Positions 1-8,960 of a stretch of 42,684 nucleotides of DNA are shown in pieces. Positions within the stretch are counted from its first letter, which is position 1, and each line of letters opens with the position of its first letter. Origin of the DNA: a virus (taxonomy: Duplodnaviria > Heunggongvirae > Uroviricota > Caudoviricetes); IMG/VR virus record IMGVR_UViG_2529292907_000016; one strand, given 5' to 3'. Made by a program: the position numbers and the translations under genes. Under the pieces are notes generated by a model that saw nothing but the letters and a program-made list of their open reading frames with translations, did not search any database and had not been told where the DNA came from.

Positions 1-933
1 TCATTCACTCTCTTTCAAACCAGTTTTAACTGTTTGTGGTTTTGGGTAAGGCTGGACTTTGAATAGCTTTGTGTTAAGGCGTTTTCTGGCTCTCTTGTCC
101 AGAAACCGGATGTAACGAAACTGACGGAATTTATGAACACTGGCTCTGTCGATATTAGCCCGCAGATGTTCACCTCGCTGTCCTCCTCGTTTGATTGCAT
201 TCTTGCAAATCTCGTGATACCACTCGCCATCAAGTTCATAGAATGTTGTTTCATGACTGCCTACATAATCAAAATTGCTTGCCTGGTACACGACACCAAG
301 ACAGCCACAACGCTCATCTGCAAACGACTGAACCCACTGCACCTGCGGATAAAGTTGTCTGATTAGTTTGAGCGCGTAACTGATTGCCCTTGATTCGGAG
401 TTTCTCGGCATACAGTCATGCAGCCATAACCGGTTAAGCTCCATATATTCGCGGTTCTGCGTGCCAGTTACGACGCGTGCACCATTGTTTGGATTAAGGG
501 CATAACCCCATTGCATTACGCCAACCAGCTCCCGTTCTGAAAATATGCCCAGATGAAGGTAGGAATTATTTACGAAACGATGGCTGTAATGTTTATTGAC
601 GACGACCAGCCGGGCCAGCCAGCAACTTATTGTCTCAACCCGTAACTCACGGGAGCCATAACCGACGATATTGTCGTTATAGTGAATAAGTTCAGGCGTG
701 CTGATGATACGGGATGTAACTTGCTTTCTGTTCCCCACGACAGGATTTCCTTGTGTATGTGGGGTGCTCTGTGGCGCTCTGAGATGTGATTTGATTGAGG
801 GTTTTACAGCGCGGACATTTAACTTCCAGATAACTGAAGCTGGCTCGTGCCAGTAGCTTGTTACAATGTCGGCACCGTATGTTTCGATACATGGCCGCAT
901 AACCTCCTGCTTTGTTGTTGATATCTTTATCAC
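1..933 (-). CDS. mom: Mom-like DNA modification protein; true start probably near the com stop (~700), not the GTG at 933
   Basis: Last ORF before the prophage right end, overlapping a Com-like zinc-finger ORF in another frame as in Mu com/mom; no canonical start codon seen in frame near com stop. Confidence 0.55.
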
Positions 934-937
934 TCAA
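692..937 (-). CDS. com: Com-like zinc-finger translational activator of mom (likely start at ATG 890-892, MYRNIRC...)
   Basis: Motif [10 protein letters not shown]...EVKCPRCK (C4 zinc finger) resembling Mu Com; overlaps mom 5' region. Confidence 0.65.
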
Positions 938-1030
938 TCGATCGACAAAAACGATCGATTTGATTTATTTAATTGATACAACAAATAACACGAAATGTCA
1001 TTAGCGAAAATTTATGAGTTTGATCACTAA
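936..1030. promoter_or_regulatory. Candidate mom/com regulatory region: three GATC sites and a perfect 9-bp inverted repeat (AATCGATCG / CGATCGATT)
   Basis: GATC at ~940, ~953, ~1022 upstream of com; Mu mom promoter is known to be controlled by Dam methylation of upstream GATC sites. Confidence 0.45.
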
Positions 1031-1148: not shown

Positions 1149-1442
1149 ATGGACAATCATGTAACGACGAGAAATCGAAAAATGATTGAAAATGCGGAAA
1201 TCTATAATGATTATTTTTCCGATTATTCAGATGCCTGCAAATACAGTTCGAGTGCGGGAGAGTTCATATGCTTCAACTTTTTTATTAAATCTTATGTTTT
1301 TCCTCCACAGCAAGAAGATGGAGGTGTGCCACCTCCTGAAATCACTTTGCACCGTATAGCCTCCGTCTCAATGATGGAGCAACAGGCTAATGAGCTGTAT
1401 AGCATTCTGGGAACGATTCTACAAAAGCGTGAATCGGACTAA
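1149..1442 (+). CDS. Hypothetical protein (97 aa), AT-rich, divergent from com/mom
   Basis: ORF with RBS-like AAGAGG 7 nt upstream of ATG; low-GC relative to flanks. Confidence 0.4.
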   Translation: MDNHVTTRNRKMIENAEIYNDYFSDYSDACKYSSSAGEFICFNFFIKSYVFPPQQEDGGVPPPEITLHRIASVSMMEQQANELYSILGTILQKRESD

Positions 1443-1609
1443 TGATACCGGTTCATTTGCCTGCCCGGATGGGGAAGCAGGATTGACTGCTCCATAAGCA
1501 GCTATATTTCTGAATACGAAATACTATCCAGCGATTACATATGGCTGGATAGCGGCAAAGATGTTTTCATTAGTGTCAAACCGGCAGAGGACACCACCGG
1601 TTTGTATTG

Positions 1610-1899: not shown

Positions 1900-2094
1900 T
1901 CAGGGCTGGGTCGGGTCTTTTGGGAGCGGAGTTACCTGCGCTGTTTTACTGAGTTTTTCAGCTGCTGCGTCCTCAATTTTGCGGCGAACATAATTTCTGA
2001 TGGCCTTATAACCACCACTCACCAGATATAACGCACATACTGCCGTGCAGAAATACAATAAAATAAGCTGTAAAAATGTCATTATCCCTCCCAA
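1900..2094 (-). CDS. Small membrane protein (64 aa, one N-terminal TM segment)
   Basis: RBS GGGAGGG upstream; hydrophobic stretch FLQLILLYFCTAVCALYLV. Confidence 0.5.
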   Translation of the reverse strand: MGGIMTFLQLILLYFCTAVCALYLVSGGYKAIRNYVRRKIEDAAAEKLSKTAQVTPLPKDPTQP

Positions 2095-2226: not shown

Positions 2227-4281
2227 TTACGCGTTATTCACTTCCACCACGATACTGTCAATCAGTACCGGGTAAGTCGCATTTTTAGTGATATCGGTCA
2301 CGCGCAACTTGTCTGCCGTAAACGTGCCGACCGGAGACTGCGACAGCATGAATGGTGTCCCGTCCTTACCATCAATGACCGGCGTCACCTCAATACTGTT
2401 GTTACCGGCAAAACGGAAGCCCAGCGTATGCCATTCGTTATTAAATGCGCCGAATGACCCCAGCTTCGTGTTCTGCGCCGTGTTTCCTTTGTGATACATC
2501 ACGTTAAGGTCTGTGGCATCGCTCTGTACGTAGAACGATGCCAGCAGGTTATGACCGGCATTTCCTTCCAGAGTAACCCCTTGCGGCAGGGCAGAAACCG
2601 GCCAGTACAGCGCCAGTGCGTACTGATTAGCCGTAAGCGCGCCATCGAGTTTAAAACGACAACTGACAAGACCACCTTTACCCAGCAGGTCCGCACCATT
2701 ACCAGCATCATGCTCAAGGTACCAGGGGGCTCTTCCTGTTTCCTTGGTCAGTTTCATTGCCTTACCCCCGCTGGCTCCGGCATCATCCACGATTTGAGCC
2801 TTGCCACCTCCGGCAGCCCAACCCTGTGGTGTCAACCGTCCTTCAGACTCAGATGCCCGGTAAGCAAATAGCGTACTCATCGTCGTGGTGTCTGCGGGTG
2901 GCGTGGACGGTTTTGATGGTGTATCAGGTGACGGCTTCTCATCCGGTGGTGTCACGGTCTGCCCGCGCATCAGTTCAGCCGTGCGCCCTGCATGGAGCAT
3001 AATAGCTGAGGCCAGACGGTCTGAAATGACGCCCCTGCGTGCCCATGAGCTGAAATGGCTGTCACGCTGTGTCGAAACAAAACTGCCCTGGGTTCGGGAT
3101 GCTGCACCGTAATACCCGACAGCCACAATATCCGGGTCTTCCGCCGGAGCATTCGTTGGCGTGCTCTGTCCATTCTCATCCGTCAGGAACGGTACAAAGA
3201 AAATTTTCTGTGCTTCCTTGCCTTTGTAGCCACCGTATACTGCCTCATATTTATCGGTGCCAGCGTTTTTCCAGTAATACGTGGTATCTCCGCAAATCCA
3301 CGGCACCGTGGTGGCATTTCCACTCACGCACTGCGCAGCAAGCGGAGCCAGGTCAGTTCTGAACTGCTGAACCATGGCCGTGAATAAACTATTATGCTGC
3401 TGGCTTCCTGAGGCAAGGTCTGCCTCTCCCTGCATCCAGACCACAGCCAGAAGTTTGTTTTTCGGGTTTTTCGCCAGCGCGACTTTGGTGCGGCTTACCA
3501 GGTCCTGATACAGAGGTTTACCGGCCCCCCAGCGTGAAGAATCAGCGGAAGCACCGCTGGCCTCACTGAATGAGCCGTCGGCTCCAGTGGTGAATGCTGA
3601 CCCGCCACGACAACAGGGCACCAGAAGTATCCCGGCATTCTGTGGGATATAGGGAAGCAGTTTTTTGGCAATATGCAACCCCTGACCGACAGTCCCGTAC
3701 TGGCCTTTTGCCAGATCAGCTTTCGGGTGGTTTATCCCGCTCATATCCTGAACATCATGCAGGCAGTGGTCTGCCGGAATGATGTCGTTGTATGTACACG
3801 ACGTACCGTTGGGCGTTACCGTACTGCGGCGTGCCAGTTGCTTAATGCGTGGGTCCGGGCGGTCAAACGAATCCGGTAACGGCAGCCCCTCGCCGTAGGC
3901 CATGCCATTTGACTGACCCGCGAGAATGACAACAAAGTAATATTCCGGCTCTGAACTGCTGCCATTCGTGCTACCGGAAGGCCCGGCGTTATCCGGTGCA
4001 TTCCAGTCGGAGGGCGTGAGCGTTCCGGCCACGTCAGATGTGATTGGAATGATGCCAGTCACGCCTGAACTGGTGATTTCTGCACTGGGATTACCGGATA
4101 CCGGCATTACCCATAATGGCTCTTTCGTGCTGAAGCGGATCACGCAGTCTGCGAAGGTGATCCCCCCTTTATTACCCGAAGGGCGGAAAGGGCTTTCAAT
4201 AAATGCCACCGTGCCACCGGCAACCTTGACTGAAAACTCTCCGGGCATGGCGGAGAGCATTTTCCACTTGGAGTCTGACAT
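2227..4281 (-). CDS. SASA-domain (sialate O-acetylesterase, NanS/NanS-p-like) esterase with Pro/Thr-rich linker and C-terminal beta-rich domain
   Basis: Motifs ILAGQSNGMAYGEG and WMQGEAD typical of SASA family; no signal peptide; linker TPPDEKPSPDTPSKPSTPP. Confidence 0.6.
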   Translation of the reverse strand: MSDSKWKMLSAMPGEFSVKVAGGTVAFIESPFRPSGNKGGITFADCVIRFSTKEPLWVMPVSGNPSAEITSSGVTGIIPITSDVAGTLTPSDWNAPDNAGPSGSTNGSSSEPEYYFVVILAGQSNGMAYGEGLPLPDSFDRPDPRIKQLARRSTVTPNGTSCTYNDIIPADHCLHDVQDMSGINHPKADLAKGQYGTVGQGLHIAKKLLPYIPQNAGILLVPCCRGGSAFTTGADGSFSEASGASADSSRWGAGKPLYQDLVSRTKVALAKNPKNKLLAVVWMQGEADLASGSQQHNSLFTAMVQQFRTDLAPLAAQCVSGNATTVPWICGDTTYYWKNAGTDKYEAVYGGYKGKEAQKIFFVPFLTDENGQSTPTNAPAEDPDIVAVGYYGAASRTQGSFVSTQRDSHFSSWARRGVISDRLASAIMLHAGRTAELMRGQTVTPPDEKPSPDTPSKPSTPPADTTTMSTLFAYRASESEGRLTPQGWAAGGGKAQIVDDAGASGGKAMKLTKETGRAPWYLEHDAGNGADLLGKGGLVSCRFKLDGALTANQYALALYWPVSALPQGVTLEGNAGHNLLASFYVQSDATDLNVMYHKGNTAQNTKLGSFGAFNNEWHTLGFRFAGNNSIEVTPVIDGKDGTPFMLSQSPVGTFTADKLRVTDITKNATYPVLIDSIVVEVNNA

Positions 4282-4355
4282 CGTCTTTTCTGCCTGTTTC
4301 TGAATTAAACAGAGTCAGAATAGCGACCGCTGAAAAATATGTGTTTTGCGGAAAT

Positions 4356-4387
4356 TCAAAAAAGCGTCACGGTACTTTTGGTGACGG
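4356..4387 (-). terminator. Intrinsic terminator at the 3' end of gin
   Basis: Minus-strand RNA: stem CGUCAC/GUGACG with 10-nt loop followed by CUUUUUUG; stem overlaps the last gin codons. Confidence 0.55.
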
Positions 4388-4939
4388 AGCTGGTGAGGCA
4401 GGAAAATAACGATAAAGGGTGGAAAGGCCAATATCAAATATCAGTGCGATTTGTTTACGGGACTCGCCATTAGCCAGCAAACGGGCGATTTGCTCCCGCT
4501 CTTTCTCTGTCAGTTTCTGAGGTCTGCCGCCATGACGCCCCTGAGCACGGGCAGCAGCAAGACCCGCGCGTGTACGTTCAATAATGAGTTCCCGCTCCAT
4601 TTCCGCCAGCGCGCCCATTATATGGAAAAAGAAACGTCCCATGGGAGTGGATGTATCAATATTGTCCGTAATGCTGCGGAAGTTAACGCCGCGTTGCCGG
4701 AGTTCTTCTGTTAAAAGGACAAGGTGCTGCATACTGCGTCCAAGGCGATCCAGTTTCCAGACCAGCAGGGTATCCCCTGGCCGGAGTCGCTTTAATGCGC
4801 GTTTAAGTCCGGGACGCTCCCTTGTCTTACCGCTTATTCTGTCTTCGAAAAACAGCTCACATCCTGCACATTCCAGCGCATTTCTTTGTAGCGCCGTATT
4901 CTGGTCATTTGTTGACACCCTGATATACCCAATCAGCAT
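4367..4939 (-). CDS. gin: Serine DNA invertase (Gin/Hin/Pin/Cin family)
   Basis: N-terminal MLIGYIRVSTNDQ (catalytic Ser region), resolvase fold and C-terminal HTH; adjacent to inverted recombination sites. Confidence 0.9.
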   Translation of the reverse strand: MLIGYIRVSTNDQNTALQRNALECAGCELFFEDRISGKTRERPGLKRALKRLRPGDTLLVWKLDRLGRSMQHLVLLTEELRQRGVNFRSITDNIDTSTPMGRFFFHIMGALAEMERELIIERTRAGLAAARAQGRHGGRPQKLTEKEREQIARLLANGESRKQIALIFDIGLSTLYRYFPASPAPSPKVP

Positions 4940-5004: not shown

Positions 5005-5030
5005 TTCCTGAAAACCTCGGTTTACGGGAA
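5005..5030. other. gix-like recombination site A (26 bp, 12+2+12, core TC)
   Basis: TTCCTGAAAACC TC GGTTTACGGGAA, an imperfect palindrome matching the Gin/Hin site architecture. Confidence 0.6.
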
Positions 5031-5140
5031 ACGGTAAACAGGGCGGCGAATGCTCTGCCATCGGACGGCACCGCCGTTGCCGCGAATAGACTCGCCACCC
5101 CAAGAAATATTAATGGGGTTCCCTTTGACGGGACGCAGGA
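5019..5140. repeat. Inverted repeat arm (~120 bp) matching 6213..6333
   Basis: ~62 bp near-identical plus ~27 bp identical block in reverse complement, separated by a diverged core. Confidence 0.7.
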
Positions 5141-5378
5141 CATAAACATCACTTCTGGTATAACACAGCAGGATGCGGATTCCCGATATATCCAGGATAT
5201 CAGGCTGGGAGCAGAGAACAGGCAGGTAATGTACGGTGGGGCATATTACTCTGCGTACGGTAATGTTATGGCAGGCCTGCAGATTGACAGTAAAGTTGAT
5301 GCTTCAAACGATTTTATAGCATTCAGACCCCTGCAAAAATTAGTCGGAGGTACATGGATTACGGTATCTCAGTTATAA
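5019..5378 (+). CDS. Alternative tail fibre C-terminal segment (Sv'), no own start; expressed only after inversion
   Basis: Open frame from site A encodes [26 protein letters not shown]..., matching residues of S at the constant/variable junction; stop TAA at 5376-5378. Confidence 0.55.
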   Translation, partial: GLRETVNRAANALPSDGTAVAANRLATPRNINGVPFDGTQDINITSGITQQDADSRYIQDIRLGAENRQVMYGGAYYSAYGNVMAGLQIDSKVDASNDFIAFRPLQKLVGGTWITVSQL

Positions 5379-5429: not shown

Positions 5430-5951
5430 ATGGAACTAAAAAATATAACCCGTTATTATCCTGAAAATATGCCATATGGTAATAATGTTCAGTATTTCCA
5501 GAGTGAAGATGGTAAGGATTTCTACGAATCCCTGCCATTATTCACCAAAAAATATAAACTTTGCATAACACCTGACAGCGGCGTTATCTGCTCAATATCA
5601 CAGGACGCCTCGGCGCTGTATCCTGCGGGGTTTTCTGTGGTTGAGGTCGATGAACTCCCTGAAGGCACGGATATTTCAGGAAACTGGAAGTTTGATAATG
5701 GCATAATCTCCCGTATTCCGGTTAACTACGCAAGAAAACTGGAAGCAATGCGCCAGTCATATCTTAATCAGGCATATGAAAAAATTAATGACTGGAGAAC
5801 GGAGCTACAACTGGGCACCATCAGCGATGAAGACAGAGCAGCACTTACCCAATGGATGGCATACATCAGTCAGGTGAAGAAAATGGAACTACCCGCCATT
5901 AAAACAGAAGCTGAATTTAACGCCATTAAATGGCCTGAGCAGCCACAGTAA
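5430..5951 (+). CDS. Tail fibre assembly protein (Tfa/U-like)
   Basis: 173-aa ORF directly after Sv' inside the invertible segment; size and position typical of tail fibre chaperones. Confidence 0.75.
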   Translation: MELKNITRYYPENMPYGNNVQYFQSEDGKDFYESLPLFTKKYKLCITPDSGVICSISQDASALYPAGFSVVEVDELPEGTDISGNWKFDNGIISRIPVNYARKLEAMRQSYLNQAYEKINDWRTELQLGTISDEDRAALTQWMAYISQVKKMELPAIKTEAEFNAIKWPEQPQ

Positions 5952-5982: not shown

Positions 5983-6864
5983 TTATATACTTGCAGCCGT
6001 CACCCATGCTCCATTTAACAGATACTGCAACGGCCGGTAATACACGCCGCCGACGTTATCTGCCGTATTCTTACCGACATCCTGTACTTTAATTCCGGTA
6101 AGAACATTGCCGCCCCCCAGATTCAGATCCCAGCTTTCCCATGTTCCGGGCATATGTGCGGTCACCGACCCCAGTCTTATGGCGGTTACTGTTCCTGATG
6201 AGATAGTGATATCCTGCGTCCCGTCAAAGGGAACACCATTAATTGTGTGGGCATTTGCCAGCCTGTTCGCGGCAACGGCGGTGCCGTCCGATGGCAGGGC
6301 ATTCGCCGCCCTGTTTACCGTTTCCCGTAAACCGACGTTATCGATAAAAGCCCCTTTATCCGGAATGTCTGCGCCGTTCTGCTCCCTGCGCAGGTAACGG
6401 TTATCACCTTCGCTTTTGCTGTAAACATCCAGATTATTACGGGCGGTTCCCTTATTCTCCAGGTCGGCGAGATTCTGATCCTTCGCCAGGGCATTAACGT
6501 CAGCGGGACCAAGACTGTTTTTTGTGGCAAGCGTCCCCAGACCAAGATAACCACGGGCCAGACGCTGGGCCTCCGCACCGGCATCAGCAATTTCTTTCAG
6601 GTTATTTTTCCGGGAAAAGGCATTCGCAGCGATAATGGCTTTAATGGACAGCGTAAGCTGGTTTAACTGCGCCTTATCCGGCTGAATACTGGCTTCAGCC
6701 AGAATATTCAGCAGTTCGGCCTGGAGAATATTCAGCCAGTCCTGACCAATCCAGCTGATACCTTTTTGTCCGTCACCTTCGGTAAACCAGGTGGTGGTAT
6801 TACTCTGCGCCGGTGCCAGCGCAGGCATATTCGCCACGCCGGAATTATTATCAACATGAAACAT
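5983..6864 (-). CDS. Tail fibre protein (S-like; constant part 6864..6336 joined to variable part 6335..5983 in this orientation)
   Basis: ORF spans recombination site B; follows the baseplate genes. Confidence 0.75.
6213..6333. repeat. Inverted repeat arm matching 5019..5140
   Basis: Reverse complement aligns with 5019..5140 (one mismatch in the first 62 bp). Confidence 0.7.
6322..6347. other. gix-like recombination site B (core GA), inside the tail fibre gene
   Basis: TTCCCGTAAACC GA CGTTATCGATAA; inner half-site is the exact reverse complement of the inner half of site A. Confidence 0.55.
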
Positions 6865-8952: not shown

Positions 8953-8960
8953 TACTGCCT
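8953..8960. repeat. 8-bp target site duplication TACTGCCT (IS66 element, lower side)
   Basis: Identical 8-mer directly flanks both ends of the element. Confidence 0.65.

Follow-up and report, generated by a model that had tools for sequence, protein, structure and literature searches.

The window analysed here is the whole 42,684-nucleotide (nt) stretch of the IMG/VR virus record IMGVR_UViG_2529292907_000016 (Caudoviricetes). It displays the features of a Mu-like backbone (Gin, Com, Mom, Mu Gp45 and GP46, and MuA) and is colinear with the annotated Mu-like prophage of Escherichia coli O157:H7. The subject of this work is a minus-strand open reading frame (ORF) that starts with ATG, ends with a stop codon at 2227-2229 and encodes a protein of 684 amino acids (aa), the RefSeq counterpart of which, WP_001284083.1, is named 'DUF6645 domain-containing protein'. 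As the original prediction had it, this gene occupies the place where phage Mu has gin followed by com, lying between gin and the com/mom pair. The gene and its surroundings are summarised in Table 1. Here we describe the gene as a nanS-p-like esterase gene that forms part of a conserved module of the Mu-like prophage lineage and encodes an N-terminal domain of its own.

Table 1. Features of the esterase locus, with window coordinates, strand and the evidence for each assignment.
Feature	Position	Strand	Evidence
nanS-p-like gene	2227..4281	(-)	ORF; PDB 3PT5 and 6YP6; Pfam SASA and DUF6645; phrog_143; RefSeq
N-terminal domain, aa 1-85, all-beta, lineage-specific, instead of DUF1737	4027..4281	(-)	
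Linker 1, aa 86-112, Ser/Gly/Pro-rich, predicted disordered; its SSSEP end abuts the catalytic domain	3946..4026	(-)	pLDDT; alignment
Catalytic NanS/SASA domain, SGNH type II esterase, aa 113-432	2986..3945	(-)	3PT5 alignment; Ser and His aligned
Linker 2, aa 433-468, Pro/Thr/Ser-rich	2878..2985	(-)	Translation; dN/dS 0.55, poorly conserved
C-terminal lectin-like jelly-roll domain (DUF6645), aa 469-684	2230..2877	(-)	6YP6 match
Hairpin after esterase stop codon, perfect 10-bp GC-rich stem, 15-nt loop	2178..2212		Repeat I7
DUF1378 small membrane protein (predicted), 60 aa from ATG	1900..2082	(-)	Pfam PF07125, E 1.2e-31; RefSeq WP_000143468.1
DUF826 small acidic protein, 84 aa	1610..1864	(-)	Pfam PF05696, E 6.4e-16
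Hairpin directly after DUF826 stop, 8-bp stem, between convergent DUF826 and ORF97	1577..1604		Repeat I13
gin DNA invertase, 85 bp upstream of esterase	4367..4939	(-)	Pfam Resolvase and HTH_7; phrog_125
com (692-892), mom (1-738) and GATC-rich palindrome (936-960)	1..960	(-)	Pfam Mom and Zn_ribbon_Com; RefSeq

Comparison with solved structures matched aa 110-428 of the protein to NanS/YjhS of E. coli O157:H7 (PDB 3PT5; E 1.8e-117) and aa 469-683 to the C-terminal jelly-roll lectin-like domain of a phage NanS-p (PDB 6YP6; E 7.1e-98). The Pfam family SASA (PF03629) was recognised at aa 117-312 (E 1.5e-13; 51.3 bits against a cut-off of 24.8) and DUF6645 (PF20350) at aa 533-650 (E 7e-68, over the Pfam cut-off), and in the PHROGs database aa 71-684 matched phrog_143, a family of unknown function (E 1.7e-296). 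The 684-aa SASA-type esterase that had been predicted from the letters of the sequence is therefore borne out by the hidden Markov model match to the SASA family. The two motifs on which that prediction was based are found at aa 122-125 (GQSN; nt 3907-3918, checked in the sequence) and at aa 284-286 (QGE), the Pro/Thr linker corresponds to a stretch at aa ~441-467 (TVTPPDEKPSPDTPSKPSTPPADTTT) within linker 2, and the C-terminal beta-rich domain is the one matching 6YP6.

In the 3PT5 alignment Gln123, Ser124 and His409 (codons 3913-3915, 3910-3912 and 3055-3057, respectively) are aligned with Gln18, Ser19 and His301 of NanS; the histidine lies within an RDSH motif (aa 406-409), which was likewise checked in the sequence. 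In NanS, Ser19 and His301 are catalytic, Gln18 belongs to the oxyanion hole and the usual triad Asp is absent (PMC9063846). Thus, of a classical Ser/His/Asp triad, the Ser and the His are conserved in the prophage protein, whereas the Asp is naturally lacking from the NanS family. Variants of the SGNH blocks have been described for NanS-p (PMC10462455), and GQSN, QGE and RxSH are all present in the 684-aa esterase. The carbohydrate site proposed for the phi24B protein's C-terminal domain is composed of Y510, Y515, Y540 and F611 (PMC10462455); these correspond to Y554, Y559, Y584 and F654 here, so that all four aromatic residues are conserved. Inspection of a hydropathy scan of the whole protein revealed no signal-peptide-like or transmembrane segment, the maximum Kyte-Doolittle values being 1.65 for the first 70 aa (11-residue window) and 1.03 for the whole protein (19-residue window), in agreement with the predicted absence of a signal peptide.

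The proportions of nonsynonymous and synonymous differences (pN/pS) relative to the O157 allele are 0.227/0.761 for the N-terminal domain, 0.194/0.713 for the catalytic domain and 0.16/0.55 for the C-terminal domain, and all three domains are under purifying selection. A chance ORF is excluded by the E-values of 1e-117 and 1e-98 together with the saturated pS and low pN, and selection and conservation speak against a pseudogene or remnant. Two further candidate identities were discarded. A tail fibre or tailspike would have had as its sole basis a weak PHROG 'tail protein' match (E 1e-6) over the SGNH core, and a defence gene found no backing in PADLOC, in which no defence family was matched by the esterase or by the neighbouring ORF97.

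The catalytic domain (aa 110-428) is the same as that of chromosomal E. coli NanS (YjhS; 3PT5), with equivalents of Ser19, His301 and Gln18 and without the triad Asp. However, chromosomal NanS has one domain only, measures ~330 aa and carries an export signal, whereas the prophage esterase adds N- and C-terminal domains; these extra domains and the prophage context speak against a chromosomal nanS orthologue. The closest relatives are instead the NanS-p proteins of lambdoid and Shiga toxin (Stx) phages, such as L0105/z1466 of 933W and vb_24B_21 (gp84) of phi24B, which share the catalytic and C-terminal domains, the motifs and the aromatic site residues, lack a signal peptide too, and are likewise followed by a hairpin, DUF1378 and DUF826. 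Searches with tblastn identified homologues of the esterase in 349 phage records, almost all of them Stx-converting or lambdoid and typically ~65% identical (over aa ~94-683); identity to 933W L0105 is ~71% in the SASA domain and ~69% in the C-terminal domain. As judged by sequence comparison, all features that define NanS-p appear to be present except DUF1737 and a location in the lambdoid late region. Lambdoid NanS-p is encoded between Q/stx and holin S, beside the lysis genes, whereas here the gene lies between gin and com/mom in the prophage of a transposable Mu-like myovirus.

The original prediction described a single esterase cargo gene. This has to be corrected, since the locus holds a module of three genes, for the esterase, DUF1378 and DUF826, homologous to that of 933W and other Stx phages. 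In pairwise protein comparison the first ORF after 933W nanS-p (L0105) is 53% identical to DUF1378 of the window and the second is 39% identical to its DUF826. The kinship of these small genes was detectable only in this way: DNA-level and tblastn searches with the DUF1378/DUF826 region of the window retrieved other Mu-like copies only, and no lambdoid matches. The gene order nevertheless recurs. In Stx2_95 and PhiR12_1 the trio nanS-p, DUF1378, DUF826 is found immediately 5' of holin S, in line with a published remark that genes for DUF826 and DUF1378 separate nanS-p from S (PMC10462455). DUF1378 of the 933W type is present in 309 phage records and lies ~150 bp past the end of the nanS-p match in all phage records that were cross-checked.

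Hairpins had been predicted on both flanks of the esterase gene. The downstream one is real: on the sense strand an A-run comes before it, which makes it a stem followed by a T-run on the opposite strand, and its position after the esterase gene is kept in the window, the O157 Mu-like prophage, 933W, Stx2_95 and PhiR12_1, with differing stems. The 85 bp that separate gin from the ORF (4282-4366) contain neither a terminator-like site nor an inverted repeat, and the upstream hairpin is thus not there. The end of the module is marked by the second hairpin, at 1577-1604. The lysis genes of this prophage are located ~26 kb from the module. That the small genes stay with the esterase while the lysis genes are so far away suggests that DUF1378 and DUF826 are functionally tied to the esterase rather than to lysis.

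The module is not confined to this record. Over its first 6 kb the window shows 100% identity to prophages of roughly a dozen complete genomes of E. coli, in one of which the prophage is inserted beside cmoM/mukF, and the same layout is seen in the O157:H7 Mu-like prophage as well as in a Mu-like phage inserted in Stx phages. All 34 of the 34 IMG/VR loci with the N-terminal domain of this esterase have, within the extent of their contigs, the order fibre-assembly gene, gin, esterase, DUF1378, DUF826, com, mom. In some window-type loci (L011-L014, L016, L019 and L025-L027) gin is a remnant of ~87 nt next to an intact esterase module; loss of the invertase is therefore not coupled to loss of the module. 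Among 5426 complete E. coli genomes, DNA for the window-type N-terminal domain occurs in 28-32 genomes and that for the O157 type in 205 genomes (246 places), while com-mom of this lineage is found in 233 genomes (285 places). About 235 of these genomes (about 4%), mostly E. coli that produce Shiga toxin (STEC) and including O157:H7, carry the Mu-like esterase arrangement. Since the genomes with the N-terminal domain (205 plus 28-32) match those with com-mom (233), the module is essentially fixed in one E. coli Mu-like prophage lineage. It was thus rightly considered notable that such a module resides in a Mu-like backbone; this holds for the lineage, however, and not for the window, which does not represent a sporadic acquisition.

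A related arrangement is found in a Mu-like prophage of Salmonella enterica (L005), in which Mu gp45-48, the fibre genes, gin and two small ORFs are followed by a gene that joins the N-terminal domain to SASA. This N-terminal domain is 30% identical to that of the window, and the contig ends inside the esterase gene. Of the two small ORFs between gin and the esterase (L005 9426-9910), one encodes 58 aa with a hydrophobic helix at the C terminus and the other 87 aa with a weak helix-turn-helix match; both are unrelated to DUF1378 or DUF826.

The copy of the prophage captured in the window is probably defective, with the esterase module intact. The MuA gene, 38468-40576(-), is split by an in-frame stop codon (39131-39133) into ORFs of 481 and 197 aa; apart from this, its product and the intact transposase of the O157 prophage (L041 annotation) share 97.7% identity over 694 aa. 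The nonsense codon probably leaves this copy unable to transpose or replicate. An element of the IS66 family (8960-11729), whose ORFs 9323-10924(-) and 10931-11617(-) encode a DDE_Tnp_IS66 transposase and an IS66 Orf2/TnpB protein, lies between Mu gp46 and gp45, where the baseplate operon, along with the 3' end of gp45, is probably disrupted by it. Neither the O157:H7 Mu-like prophage nor the copy in strain 23CRST047, which is identical in other respects, contains the element. Location in such a prophage is what could be expected if the esterase gene were a decaying passenger, that is, an inactive leftover of recombination with a lambdoid prophage. We consider this extremely unlikely: the ORF is full-length, the catalytic residues are complete, the three domains are under strong purifying selection and the gene is kept in essentially all ~235 genomes carrying the lineage, plus Salmonella.

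The N-terminal ~110 aa of the protein are unrelated to the DUF1737 of lambdoid NanS-p, a point overlooked in the original prediction, and the replacement of this domain is the only unusual trait of the present NanS-p. In 933W NanS-p DUF1737 is located at aa 3-53, whereas the Mu-like esterase has an unrelated beta domain of ~85 aa in its place. Within aa 1-113 no Pfam match was obtained even at E<=10, no PHROG, NCBIfam or PADLOC family matched the domain, and forced alignment to the lambdoid DUF1737 N-termini gave 12-20% identity. Protein similarity to lambdoid NanS-p starts only at aa ~94-112 (tblastn) and DNA similarity to 933W at window position 3949, which corresponds to aa ~111. AlphaFold modelling of the full esterase from the single sequence yielded a mean predicted local distance difference test score (pLDDT) of 33. 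With a six-sequence alignment, aa 1-80 were modelled with moderate confidence as all-beta (pLDDT about 70-89) and aa 82-111 were predicted to be disordered (pLDDT <50). The DUF1737 fold has been described as a helix and three strands (bioRxiv 10.64898/2026.04.10.717836).

HMMER searches of 1.84 billion representatives with the N-terminal domain as a query returned only fragments of the same protein, one Salmonella fragment and P0006, a probable chance match. A scan of species-representative genomes found no such domain, scans of IMG/VR and of metagenomes retrieved two E. coli allele groups only, and no paralogue was found elsewhere in the prophage. In these searches the domain is thus seen only fused to this esterase, in Mu-like prophages. 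Structural comparison did not match it to any known decoration or adaptor protein.

The esterase gene is strongly mosaic. In the O157 allele (L002) the SASA domain is 81% identical to that of 933W and 70% to that of the window allele, and the corresponding values for the C-terminal domain are 79% and 73%. Among the O157-type loci L002, L037 and L040 the N-terminal domains are 98% identical, while the catalytic domains share 68-69% and the C-terminal domains 36-47% identity. Between the two E. coli prophage types the N-terminal domains are 60% and the head genes 94% identical. The identities of the SASA and C-terminal domains, set against the 98% of the N-terminal domains, indicate that the enzyme and lectin part swaps between phage types and that the N-terminal domain follows the backbone. 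Such a pattern points to frequent recombination of the Mu-like nanS-p genes with lambdoid ones in the same STEC genomes.

Recent work on phi24B assigns a structural role to the region that differs here. The NanS-p of that phage, gp84, is reported to be a major virion protein, DUF1737 of which forms hexamers on the central capsid hexons, the remainder of the protein being cleaved off later (bioRxiv 10.64898/2026.04.10.717836). The reportedly capsid-binding DUF1737 is exactly the part that is swapped in the Mu-like esterase, the rest of which is homologous. It is possible, though in our estimation doubtful, that the N-terminal domain is the counterpart of DUF1737 and anchors the esterase on a Mu-type particle, be it on the capsid hexons, the tail or the baseplate; in that case the enzyme would decorate the particle as a structural component that binds or modifies mucus or cell-surface glycans, beyond being a fitness factor released by lysis. 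A folded beta domain (as predicted) under purifying selection, joined to the enzyme by a disordered tether of ~25 aa, is what a displayed enzyme might look like, and the domain is known only as a fusion to the esterase in Mu-like prophages. In addition, its type tracks the backbone, Mu-like versus lambdoid, while the SASA and C-terminal alleles cross backbones. Linkage to the backbone would, however, equally be expected from recombination alone, given that the N-terminal domain lies outside the stretch held in common with lambdoid alleles. Moreover, tight contact with the capsid would not predict N-terminal domains of 60% identity alongside head genes of 94%, the domain bears no structural likeness to decoration or adaptor proteins, and the phi24B result comes from an unreviewed preprint. 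We therefore put no great weight on particle attachment, in view of the geometry of recombination, the lack of likeness to decoration proteins and the disparity between 60% and 94%. With similar reservations, and as a tentative suggestion that we do not favour, the domain could be an unrecognised virion-attachment module, and the catalytic and lectin cassette a portable 'mucus-enzyme' payload passed among unrelated temperate phages. Virion-borne SGNH esterases with known particle attachment do exist, an example being the O-antigen deacetylase tailspike of phage G7C. Tailspike esterases of this type are phage-borne SGNH enzymes acting on O-antigen and would offer a model if the present enzyme is particle-bound.

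The right end of the prophage has the same gene order and orientation as that of phage Mu, with an invertible fibre segment, gin, com and mom. In Mu only 94 bp, Pmom included, separate the stop of gin from the start of com, whereas in the Mu-like lineage the interval measures about 3.4 kb and holds the esterase module and a variable ORF on the opposite strand. This ORF97, 1149-1442(+), is convergent with DUF826 and encodes 86-97 aa (the RefSeq start is at 1182); promoter-like sites are found at 1128-1214, and the product has no family in Pfam, PHROG, NCBIfam or PADLOC. Most window-type loci have this ORF but some lack it, and in O157-type prophages other sequence takes its place. Just 5' of com lies the GATC-rich palindrome (936-960), a perfect 9-bp one holding GATC sites (AATCGATCG ... 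CGATCGATT); by position only, we take it to sit where Mu has the mom regulatory region controlled by Dam and OxyR.

The terminator-free gap of 85 bp between gin and the esterase bears on the question of when the enzyme is made. Constitutive transcription together with gin would allow it to serve the intact lysogen, with DUF1378 and DUF826 providing a non-classical route of export. The constant pairing of the esterase with DUF1378, which is predicted to be a small membrane protein, in two phage backbones that are unrelated would fit such lysogenic conversion, as would the intactness of the esterase ORF in a prophage with a damaged MuA gene and baseplate operon. Nevertheless, we regard it as unlikely, for the esterase has neither a signal peptide nor a transmembrane segment, DUF1378 and DUF826 have no known export function, and lambdoid nanS-p is induced alongside the late genes (PMC10462455; PMC8065619).

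Upstream of gin, inverted repeats of ~150 bp (5010-5158 and 6194-6342; 84-93% complementary) flank a Gin-invertible segment of ~1.0 kb, which contains a tail-fibre assembly gene (5430-5951) and a C-terminal fibre fragment and is inverted in the O157 prophage L002 relative to the window. The esterase gene thus adjoins the host-range region, and the esterase, gin and the fibres constitute the block that diverges most between the two prophage types. This setting would suit an enzyme that deacetylates bacterial O-antigen or an O-acetylated polysialic-acid capsule, either aiding adsorption or altering the surface of the lysogen, in the manner of certain other coliphages' virion esterases. The possibility has been raised for NanS-p (PMC8065619). 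It is, however, an improbable function for the present protein: all assayed members of the family act on Neu5,9Ac2 and mucin glycans (PMC8065619), the catalytic and lectin-site residues match those of the sialate-specific enzymes, and the allele of the tail-fibre assembly gene does not co-vary with that of the esterase across loci.

Taking together the homology, the conserved catalytic and binding residues, the synteny of the module, its fixation in the lineage and the purifying selection on three domains, it is highly likely that the gene encodes a genuine NanS-p-type 9-O-acetyl-sialate esterase, borne on a module of a Mu-like prophage lineage. The core of the original prediction, a NanS-p like those of lambdoid phages, devoid of a signal peptide and placed between gin and com/mom of a Mu-like backbone, is accordingly upheld by homology and synteny. 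What we infer from there is the substrate, the timing of expression (by read-through from gin, late transcription or both) and the way in which the enzyme is released. The Ser124/His409 dyad, with Gln123 and a backbone Gly as the oxyanion hole, would de-O-acetylate Neu5,9Ac2 as well as sialic acids bound to mucin, and the jelly-roll lectin-like domain would direct the enzyme to glycans. Both Neu5,9Ac2 and mucin glycans are indeed substrates of NanS-p family members, which also sustain growth on Neu5,9Ac2 (PMC8065619). As gin is not followed by a terminator, the esterase may be transcribed by read-through from it. As the protein lacks a signal peptide, it would be synthesised in the cytoplasm and reach its substrate only on lysis of the host, either free or on phage particles. 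The earlier description of the enzyme as lysis-released accords with the missing signal peptide, yet may be incomplete, since the phi24B homologue is reported to reside on the capsid (2026 preprint).

Several observations weigh against this assignment and the scheme that goes with it. The catalytic domain is ~70% identical to that of characterised NanS-p, and the substrate specificity could differ. The module is located away from the lysis genes, and late co-expression with lysis cannot be assumed. A scan for promoters and terminators revealed no excess of sites over shuffled sequence and nothing 5' of the esterase. Finally, owing to the stop codon in MuA and the IS66 insertion, the prophage's own lytic cycle is probably unable to deliver the esterase in this host.

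NanS-p proteins, of which many copies are present per STEC genome, are thought to help pathogenic E. coli to feed on O-acetylated sialic acids of mucin. The searchable literature, outside which some subscription papers lie, contained no paper linking NanS-p with Mu-like prophages (or with Sp18). The esterase described here is a member of a known enzyme family in a new variant of domain composition and context, one of which databases already contain many entries, with names that say little about it. It extends the NanS-p family beyond lambdoid prophages, in that one Mu-like lineage has a version to itself, which inventories of nanS-p genes have probably missed because of its RefSeq name, 'DUF6645 domain-containing protein', and its lack of DUF1737. 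The company of DUF1378 and DUF826 in two unrelated backbones ties these genes to the esterase and not to the adjoining lambdoid lysis cassette. If the anchor has indeed been swapped, the Mu-like and lambdoid proteins would constitute a natural experiment on mounting one enzyme on different particles, as well as a separate means of testing whether NanS-p is, as recently claimed, a structural decoration protein. Were the attachment reading true, modification of sialoglycans would belong to phage particles and not to lysates alone, with each type of phage keeping an anchor of its own.

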